Shown one piece after another: positions 610 through 1,206 of a DNA stretch of 5,025 nt. This stretch comes from a virus (lineage: Duplodnaviria; Heunggongvirae; Uroviricota; Caudoviricetes): IMG/VR virus record IMGVR_UViG_2681813313_000011; one strand, 5' to 3'. Within the stretch, counting starts at the first letter, position 1. Each line of letters begins with the position of its first letter. The position numbers and the translations under genes were made by a program. Under the pieces are notes generated by a model. The model was given only the letters and a program-made list of their open reading frames with translations, made no database searches and was not told the DNA's origin.

Positions 610-777
610 TCAAGCATTATGCAGGCTGTTTCTTTTTATCACCGGCCACAGCAATACCATAATGCCGCAGACCAGCACTCCATCCGCCAGCACCGACATG
701 ATTCTGCTGGTGAAATCCACCATCACCACCAGAAACAGCAGGAGTGCAGCCACAGTCAGGCGCAGTTTTACCGTCAC
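610..777 (-). CDS. Hypothetical small membrane protein, 55 aa from GTG (37 aa if from ATG at 723), two predicted hydrophobic helices
   Basis: Translation MTVKLRLTVAALLLFLVVMVDFTSRIMSVLADGVLVCGIMVLLWPVIKRNSLHNA. GTG start overlaps the TGA of the upstream TerB-like frame (GTGA), with GGAG 8 nt upstream. Contains rare codons AGA (x2) and ATA. Not in the ORF track because the ATG-initiated version is below the size cutoff. Confidence 0.4.
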   Translation of the reverse strand: MTVKLRLTVAALLLFLVVMVDFTSRIMSVLADGVLVCGIMVLLWPVIKRNSLHNA

Positions 778-1206
778 AGGTAATTCTCCAGACGAAGACC
801 CAGAACACCGGCAATCTCTTCCAGCACCTTGCGCTCTTCCGGCTCAATTTCGCCGTCTGCCTCCGCAATGGCCACCGCCACATCCAGCACATCTTCCGCT
901 TCACGCGTATCGTGTTTCACATCCTCGATCTCACGTAACGCCGCACGACGACCAGTTTTAAAGTTCGTATCCAGCTGACCGATAATGGTTGCGCTAATCG
1001 CATTAATTTCTGACGTAAACGCGTACAGCGCAGGCTGATTACGCAGTACCTGTTCGATCTTCGCTTTCTAGGAAGCCTCACATTCACCATCTGCACAGGC
1101 CACCAGGTATGCGGCGTTAATCACCACCTGTGCCAGATCGCGTTTTTCAAACTTTCTAATTTCCGTTGCCGCTCTGCGGGCTTTTTTTACCAAAAATACC
1201 AAACAT
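774..1206 (-). pseudogene. TerB-like (tellurite-resistance TerB family) gene, disrupted by a +1 frameshift in a 7-nt homopolymer and an in-frame TAG
   Basis: ATG at 1206-1204 with AGGA Shine-Dalgarno 8 nt upstream. The ATG frame stops after 16 codons (MFGIFGKKSPQSGNGN). Removing one base from the A7 run (forward T-run 1182-1188) restores MFGIFGKKARRAATEIRKFEKRDLAQVVINAAYLVACADGECEAS-(TAG at 1068-1070)-KAKIEQVLRNQPALYAFTSEINAISATIIGQLDTNFKTGRRAALREIEDVKHDTREAEDVLDVAVAIAEADGEIEPEERKVLEEIAGVLGLRLENYL. The repeated A-ADGE plus acidic helix pattern is TerB-like. Confidence 0.55.

Follow-up and report, generated by a model that had tools for sequence, protein, structure and literature searches.

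An inherited tciA allele with an A7 run and an amber codon in the late region of a lambdoid Escherichia coli prophage

Results

Gene content of the locus

The stretch of DNA analysed here (5,025 nucleotides, referred to as the window) comes from the late region of an E. coli prophage of the lambdoid type, and every gene in it is encoded on the minus strand. The features needed in the following are listed from upstream to downstream.

3945-2890, minus strand: gene for a DUF968 protein
2889-2524, minus strand: RusA gene
2533-1838, minus strand: gene for antiterminator Q
1663-1635, minus strand: promoter-like site between Q and the tRNA genes (consensus scan)
1376-1625, minus strand: tRNA-Ile2 (CAT), tRNA-Arg (TCG) and tRNA-Arg (TCT), upstream of tciA
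1215-1219, minus strand: Shine-Dalgarno sequence AAGGA, 8 nt 5' of the ATG at 1206-1204, kept in all homologous loci
774-1206, minus strand: tciA (TerB-family) pseudogene, counted from the ancestral ATG through the TGA, assigned by frame reading, Pfam and PHROG; annotated as a pseudogene by RefSeq in identical loci
1200-1202, minus strand: TTG in the body frame at a spacing of 12 nt to the Shine-Dalgarno sequence; PGAP starts A7 alleles here
1182-1188, minus strand: A7 homopolymer, one A more than in intact A6 alleles, so that the frame opened by the ATG changes at codon 8-9
1156-1158, minus strand: stop closing the 16-codon ATG frame (TAG here, TAA in O157:H7 copies)
1068-1070, minus strand: in-frame amber codon TAG replacing GAG at codon 46 of the 143-aa protein (alignments)
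610-777, minus strand: tciB (DUF3927, 55 aa, hydrophobic), intact (PF13064, 60.4 bits; PHROG 1470)
390-408, minus strand: terminator-like hairpin with T-run downstream of tciB (consensus scan only)
about 295, minus strand: start of a SASA-family esterase gene that continues beyond the window

The GTG start codon of tciB overlaps the TGA of tciA (GTGA) and is preceded by a GGAG of its own 8 nt upstream. This gene is intact at every locus examined, and its window version is found on at least 995 contigs. A consensus scan of the minus strand gave no promoter-like site between the last tRNA gene and tciA, and therefore tciA is probably read from the site at 1663-1635. Late transcription of lambdoid phages from pR' is Q-antiterminated, and in Stx phages the Shiga toxin genes occupy the slot taken here by tciA-tciB, downstream of the Q/tRNA cluster and upstream of the esterase and lysis genes. 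Phage JLK-2012 shows the same layout, with Q, a tRNA cluster, genes named tciA and tciB, an esterase gene and lysis genes.

Further elements were recognised outside the tciA-tciB pair. The small RNA family STnc100 (RF02076) has a full-length Rfam match at 433-605 on the minus strand (100.8 bits, gathering score 47), just downstream of tciB and upstream of the hairpin at 408-390. A hok/sok type I toxin-antitoxin locus occupies 4393-4717 (minus strand); sok RNA is matched over 4543-4717 (110 bits), the Hok reading frame is contained in a 70-aa ORF at 4393-4605 (minus strand), and RefSeq annotates hokD in an identical locus.

The disrupted reading frame

The start region of tciA on the minus strand reads ATG, followed by TTT GGT ATT TTT GGT AAA AAA AGC. 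Frame 0 from the ATG at 1206 translates as MFGIFGKKSPQSGNGN and ends at the TAG at 1158-1156 after 16 codons. Deletion of one A produces a frame of 143 codons plus stop (776-774) with a single in-frame TAG at 1070-1068; 3' of the A-run, the +1 frame translates as ARRAATEIRKFEKRDLAQVVINAAYLVACADGECEAS, is interrupted by this stop, and goes on as KAKIEQ...LENYL up to the terminal stop. A preliminary description of this DNA had reported exactly this arrangement, namely an ATG with a good Shine-Dalgarno sequence that runs into a stop after 16 codons, and a TerB-like frame containing an amber codon that is restored by removal of one base from 1182-1188. Both readings were confirmed on the minus strand and all coordinates given earlier are correct.

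A second possible start has to be considered, as the TTG at 1202-1200, four bases past the ATG, opens the body frame without any shift. In identical loci PGAP calls tciA a pseudogene and places its start at the window equivalent of 1202, not 1206. Because this TTG sits in the body frame, the annotation carries only the remark 'internal stop' and no 'frameshifted' flag.

Re-initiation past the amber codon was considered as well. The one in-frame start, GTG 920, would give a 48-aa fragment, and the purine-rich stretch closest to it (GAGG) is just 2 nt upstream; going by the sequence, its use seems unlikely. This C-terminal 48-aa GTG ORF (774-920, minus strand) is matched exactly by PHROG 3920 (48 positions, E 9.5e-36), which looks like a 'protein family' assembled from pseudogene fragments.

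Family membership and intact homologues

For comparison with known families we used a repaired translation, in which one A was removed and TAG was read as Glu. It matches Pfam TerB (PF05099) with 45.3 bits at a cut-off of 24.4, PHROG 632 'tellurite resistance' from end to end (1-143 of 143, E 7e-68) and the solved structure of Klebsiella TerB, 2jxu, over residues 15-137 (E 3.7e-7). The TerB-like identity proposed earlier is thus borne out and, as the repaired translation matches both Pfam TerB and PHROG 632, 774-1206 is the remnant of a real gene and no chance ORF. The second of the two DGx5E motifs typical of the family, DGEIEPEE, is present in the window copy; the first, DGECEAS-E, is broken, as the codon of its last Glu is TAG. 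The window tciA is therefore a member of the TerB/TciA family by descent, albeit a non-functional one.

The closest known relative is TciA of lambdoid phages and P1 (PHROG 632; TciA of JLK-2012, AFB75444.1), which is the same gene with 93% identity to the window DNA. Compared with the JLK-2012 protein, the window copy has A7 for A6, TAG for GAG at codon 46, and the exchanges S59Y, H142Y and K17R. The helical domain of TerB from the terZABCDE tellurite-resistance operon (PF05099, 2jxu) is homologous and includes two DGx5E motifs. Relative to this protein the window tciA is a distant and truncated relative, its partner is the 55-aa DUF3927 membrane peptide, and it lies outside any ter operon, with no terC, terD or terZ nearby. 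What TciA does is known by annotation only. A literature search for tciA in prophages returned nothing beyond annotation-level mentions, and PADLOC gave no significant match that would place TciA and TciB in a known anti-phage defence system (best match E 0.007, no stretch passed alone). The tci genes of P1 are non-essential (PMC10695390).

The preliminary description had suggested an alignment with intact homologues as a way to identify the residue lost at the amber codon. Five intact copies from the same genomic context were compared, namely those of JLK-2012 (L001), O145 RM9872 (L007), phage Evi (L005), phage PPyecE_EH1910 (L006) and DETEC-E1005 (L010). In all five the gene has 432 nt (143 aa) and the same ATG, and the N-terminus follows the pattern M[FL]GIF[GK]KK. 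The A-run is A6 or interrupted (AAAAAGAAAA) and in none of these copies A7; Evi, PPyecE and DETEC-E1005 have TTCAAAAAGAAAACC in its place. At the amber position, all five carry GAG. The residue under the TAG is consequently a conserved Glu, the final residue of the first TerB DGx5E motif, which aligns with a Glu of 2jxu. The disrupting differences between the window and the intact homologues are A6 to A7 and GAG to TAG.

Distribution of the allele

The frequency of both differences was determined in 5426 complete E. coli genomes. Since BLAST low-complexity masking hides short queries with an A-run, run length was searched with queries of 88-90 nt with long unmasked flanks, and the TAG with a 55-mer in which each 28-base seed was forced to span the T of TAG. 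A 601-nt region round tciA was recovered at 99% identity or more from 527 records of this collection, and two genomes match window positions 700-1300 at 100%. The TAG allele is present at 1006 places in 578 records. With identical flanks, the A7 89-mer has exact matches in 555 records and the A6 version in 8; the A8 version has none in the 5426 genomes. The copy number per genome has a median of 3-4 places.

Both differences are inherited alleles that are common in O157:H7 and other STEC. Loci of O157:H7 and further E. coli to which RefSeq gives the label 'tellurite resistance TerB family protein, internal stop' (for instance ECpv15279_RS14160 and WHU35_RS04630) share both of them and differ from the window by 0-1 base over 601 bases, that is, in nothing material. 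The idea put forward earlier that two lesions indicate real decay holds, and it can be extended: the gene is an inherited decayed one and no mis-assembly, given its presence in many independent complete genomes and the pseudogene call by PGAP. The accompanying suggestion of a read error or slipped-strand variation at the homopolymer finds no support at the population level, with 555 A7, 8 A6 and 0 A8 records.

None of the complete genomes searched is 100% identical to the window over its whole length. Z1323HEC0108 comes closest with 99.9%, and there the region is interrupted by an IS1203 insertion. An A at 679 is private to the window and synonymous in tciB, and G for A at 1156 is shared by the window and two Korean human isolates.

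Haplotypes and selection

Haplotypes were sampled at 14 of the roughly 2000 tciA places in the complete E. coli genomes, and all four combinations of run length and codon 46 occur.

A6/GAG: L001 and L007, plus L011 and L012 with window-like flanks
A7/GAG: L008, O157:H7 WS4202
A7/TAG: the window, L002-L004 and L009
A6/TAG: L014, strain UTAK-1 (NZ_CP157165.1, 840-1271)

The A7/GAG copy of WS4202 carries no further lesion, and its annotated product is an intact protein of 142 aa, WP_001303509.1 (MVFLVKKARR..., L008 1396-1824), the exact sequence of which is found on at least 993 contigs. RefSeq is thus inconsistent on A7: together with GAG the gene is called 'intact' from the TTG, and together with TAG it receives only the remark 'internal stop'. 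With the TTG start, the annotation of the A7/GAG allele probably works around a frameshift. In a laboratory derivative of strain 86-24 (L013, NZ_CP017249.1) the locus is the same as L008 except for A6; either the run has genuinely slipped back, which restores the ancestral frame, or the assembly contains a homopolymer error.

The most parsimonious order suggested by these sequences is A6/GAG to A7/GAG to A7/TAG, with exchange between prophage copies. The order is blurred by the A6/TAG copy of UTAK-1 and by the occurrence of TAG on two backgrounds (L009 versus the window type). The UTAK-1 copy has A6-type bases upstream of 1096 and window-type bases downstream; it looks recombinant and indicates such an exchange. 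The tRNA annotation next to this copy is unusual, with two tRNAs, one of them of 74 nt. O157:H7 has copies of both the A7/GAG and the A7/TAG type. In one O157:H7 genome there is a second A7/TAG copy, L009 (NZ_AP018488.1, 2115727-2118781); its prophage lacks annotated tRNA genes in the interval from Q to tciA, and the gene at the esterase position downstream is frameshifted.

Intact alleles differ mostly by synonymous changes, with pN/pS values of 0.02-0.15 in 14 of 15 pairs. The remaining value of 0.27 belongs to the closest intact pair (L005-L011), which is separated by only about five synonymous and five nonsynonymous differences. From L008 to the window we count one synonymous and three nonsynonymous changes (Ser replaced by Tyr at 1024, His by Tyr at 782 and Lys by Arg at 1156) in addition to the amber codon, a decay-like direction that is based on only four substitutions.

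Discussion

We interpret 774-1206 (minus strand) as a heritable, inactivated allele of tciA, a 143-aa accessory gene ('moron') found in lambdoid prophages of E. coli, and put the probability of this reading at roughly 90%. The extra A that converts A6 into A7 at codon 8-9 would cause ribosomes that start at the ancestral ATG to produce the 16-residue peptide only. In an A7 allele the body frame would be reachable solely from the weak TTG four bases downstream, in competition with the ATG, and expression of tciA is probably severely reduced. The change of GAG to TAG at codon 46 takes away the conserved Glu that ends the first DGx5E motif, together with everything beyond; the product can comprise no more than about 45 residues, compared with about 125 for the fold, and no functional TerB is made from either start. 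After the amber mutation the lineage of the window seems to have gained more nonsynonymous changes, as would be expected once selection on the gene has ceased. Polarity on downstream genes would not be expected, in view of Q-antiterminated transcription from pR'.

The two differences do not weigh the same. Truncation at codon 46 would result from either start, and the amber codon is therefore an unambiguous knock-out. The effect of A7 depends on the TTG: provided that this codon is used, A7 alone would change only the first six residues. By the general rules of initiation in E. coli we expect it to be used poorly, because TTG is weak as a start codon, lies 12 nt from the Shine-Dalgarno sequence and has to compete with an ATG at the optimal distance of 8 nt. 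We therefore regard A7 as a probable hypomorph that is possibly leaky, but not as a proven knock-out. The earlier characterisation of the gene as 'doubly disrupted' stands in so far as both differences are real; the in-frame TTG at 1202 weakens the case for A7 as an independent lesion, and it is the amber codon that is decisive.

The alternative to be taken most seriously, although we consider it unlikely, carries this argument one step further: the amber codon would be the sole lesion, with A7 functional via the TTG at 1202 (MVFLVKK... instead of MFGIFGKK...), and the gene disrupted only once. It would account well for the A7/GAG allele, which PGAP presents as an intact 142-aa protein, which recurs in exact form on so many contigs and which is free of other lesions in WS4202. 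No more than six N-terminal residues would differ, and the alignment to 2jxu begins only at residue 15, which places the N-terminus outside the core fold. However, the intact homologues all begin with M[FL]GIF at the ATG and the match to PHROG 632 extends from residue 1. Moreover, an ATG with optimal spacing would be expected to take the initiating ribosomes at the expense of a weak TTG. That A7/GAG persists could simply mean that it arose recently and has spread clonally in O157:H7 and related STEC.

A variant of this proposal to which we give little credit treats A7 as a device for low-level expression: from the very common A7/GAG alleles TciA would be made in deliberately small amounts via the TTG, +1 slippage or loss of an A during transcription, and the 16-codon ATG frame would serve as an overlapping leader ORF. 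If this were the case, the amber allele of the window would be the sole true null.

Programmed recoding or phase variation, with A7 as a site of +1 frameshifting, transcriptional slippage or slipped-strand switching and with readthrough of the amber codon, appears very improbable. On a sequence such as A AAA AAA, both tRNA-Lys and RNA polymerase are intrinsically prone to slip, and A6 and A7 forms both exist with otherwise identical flanks. Nevertheless, intact orthologues are read in one frame and need no shift, often without the run; neither a conserved shift site nor the need for one was found among them, the run being A6 or interrupted. The frame-0 product would be nothing but a 16-residue peptide, and Rfam contains no known recoding or regulatory RNA element that matches 774-1375. 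A contingency locus should show frequent run-length polymorphism, which was not found among the records with identical flanks; the length of the run is stable, and seven bases are short for a contingency tract. As no A8 allele was found, we do not consider the A-run a phase switch. Furthermore, none of the three tRNAs of the window is an amber suppressor with a CUA anticodon (the adjacent genes have the anticodons CAT, TCG and TCT, none CTA), and two inefficient events in series would leave a negligible amount of full-length product.

Least probable of all is a sequencing or assembly artefact with A6 and a sense codon as the true sequence and an intact gene: homopolymer length is a classic site of error, and the 86-24 derivative (NADC 5570/86-24/6565), which differs from L008 in run length alone, may be a case of it, but the TAG is a substitution and no indel, an error in the window's own sequence is implausible since hundreds of other records hold the same allele, among them the exact A7 matches and two genomes identical over 700-1300, and at the population level this reading is effectively refuted.

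What we observe is the ordinary decay of a prophage moron gene, in an allele that RefSeq already lists as a pseudogene. Beyond annotation hygiene the significance is small, the window tciA being a widely inherited pseudogene and no assembly error. Nonetheless, studies of the TciA/TciB moron in prophages of the Shiga-toxin type can draw on A6/GAG, A7/GAG and A7/TAG as a ready allelic series that occurs in nature.
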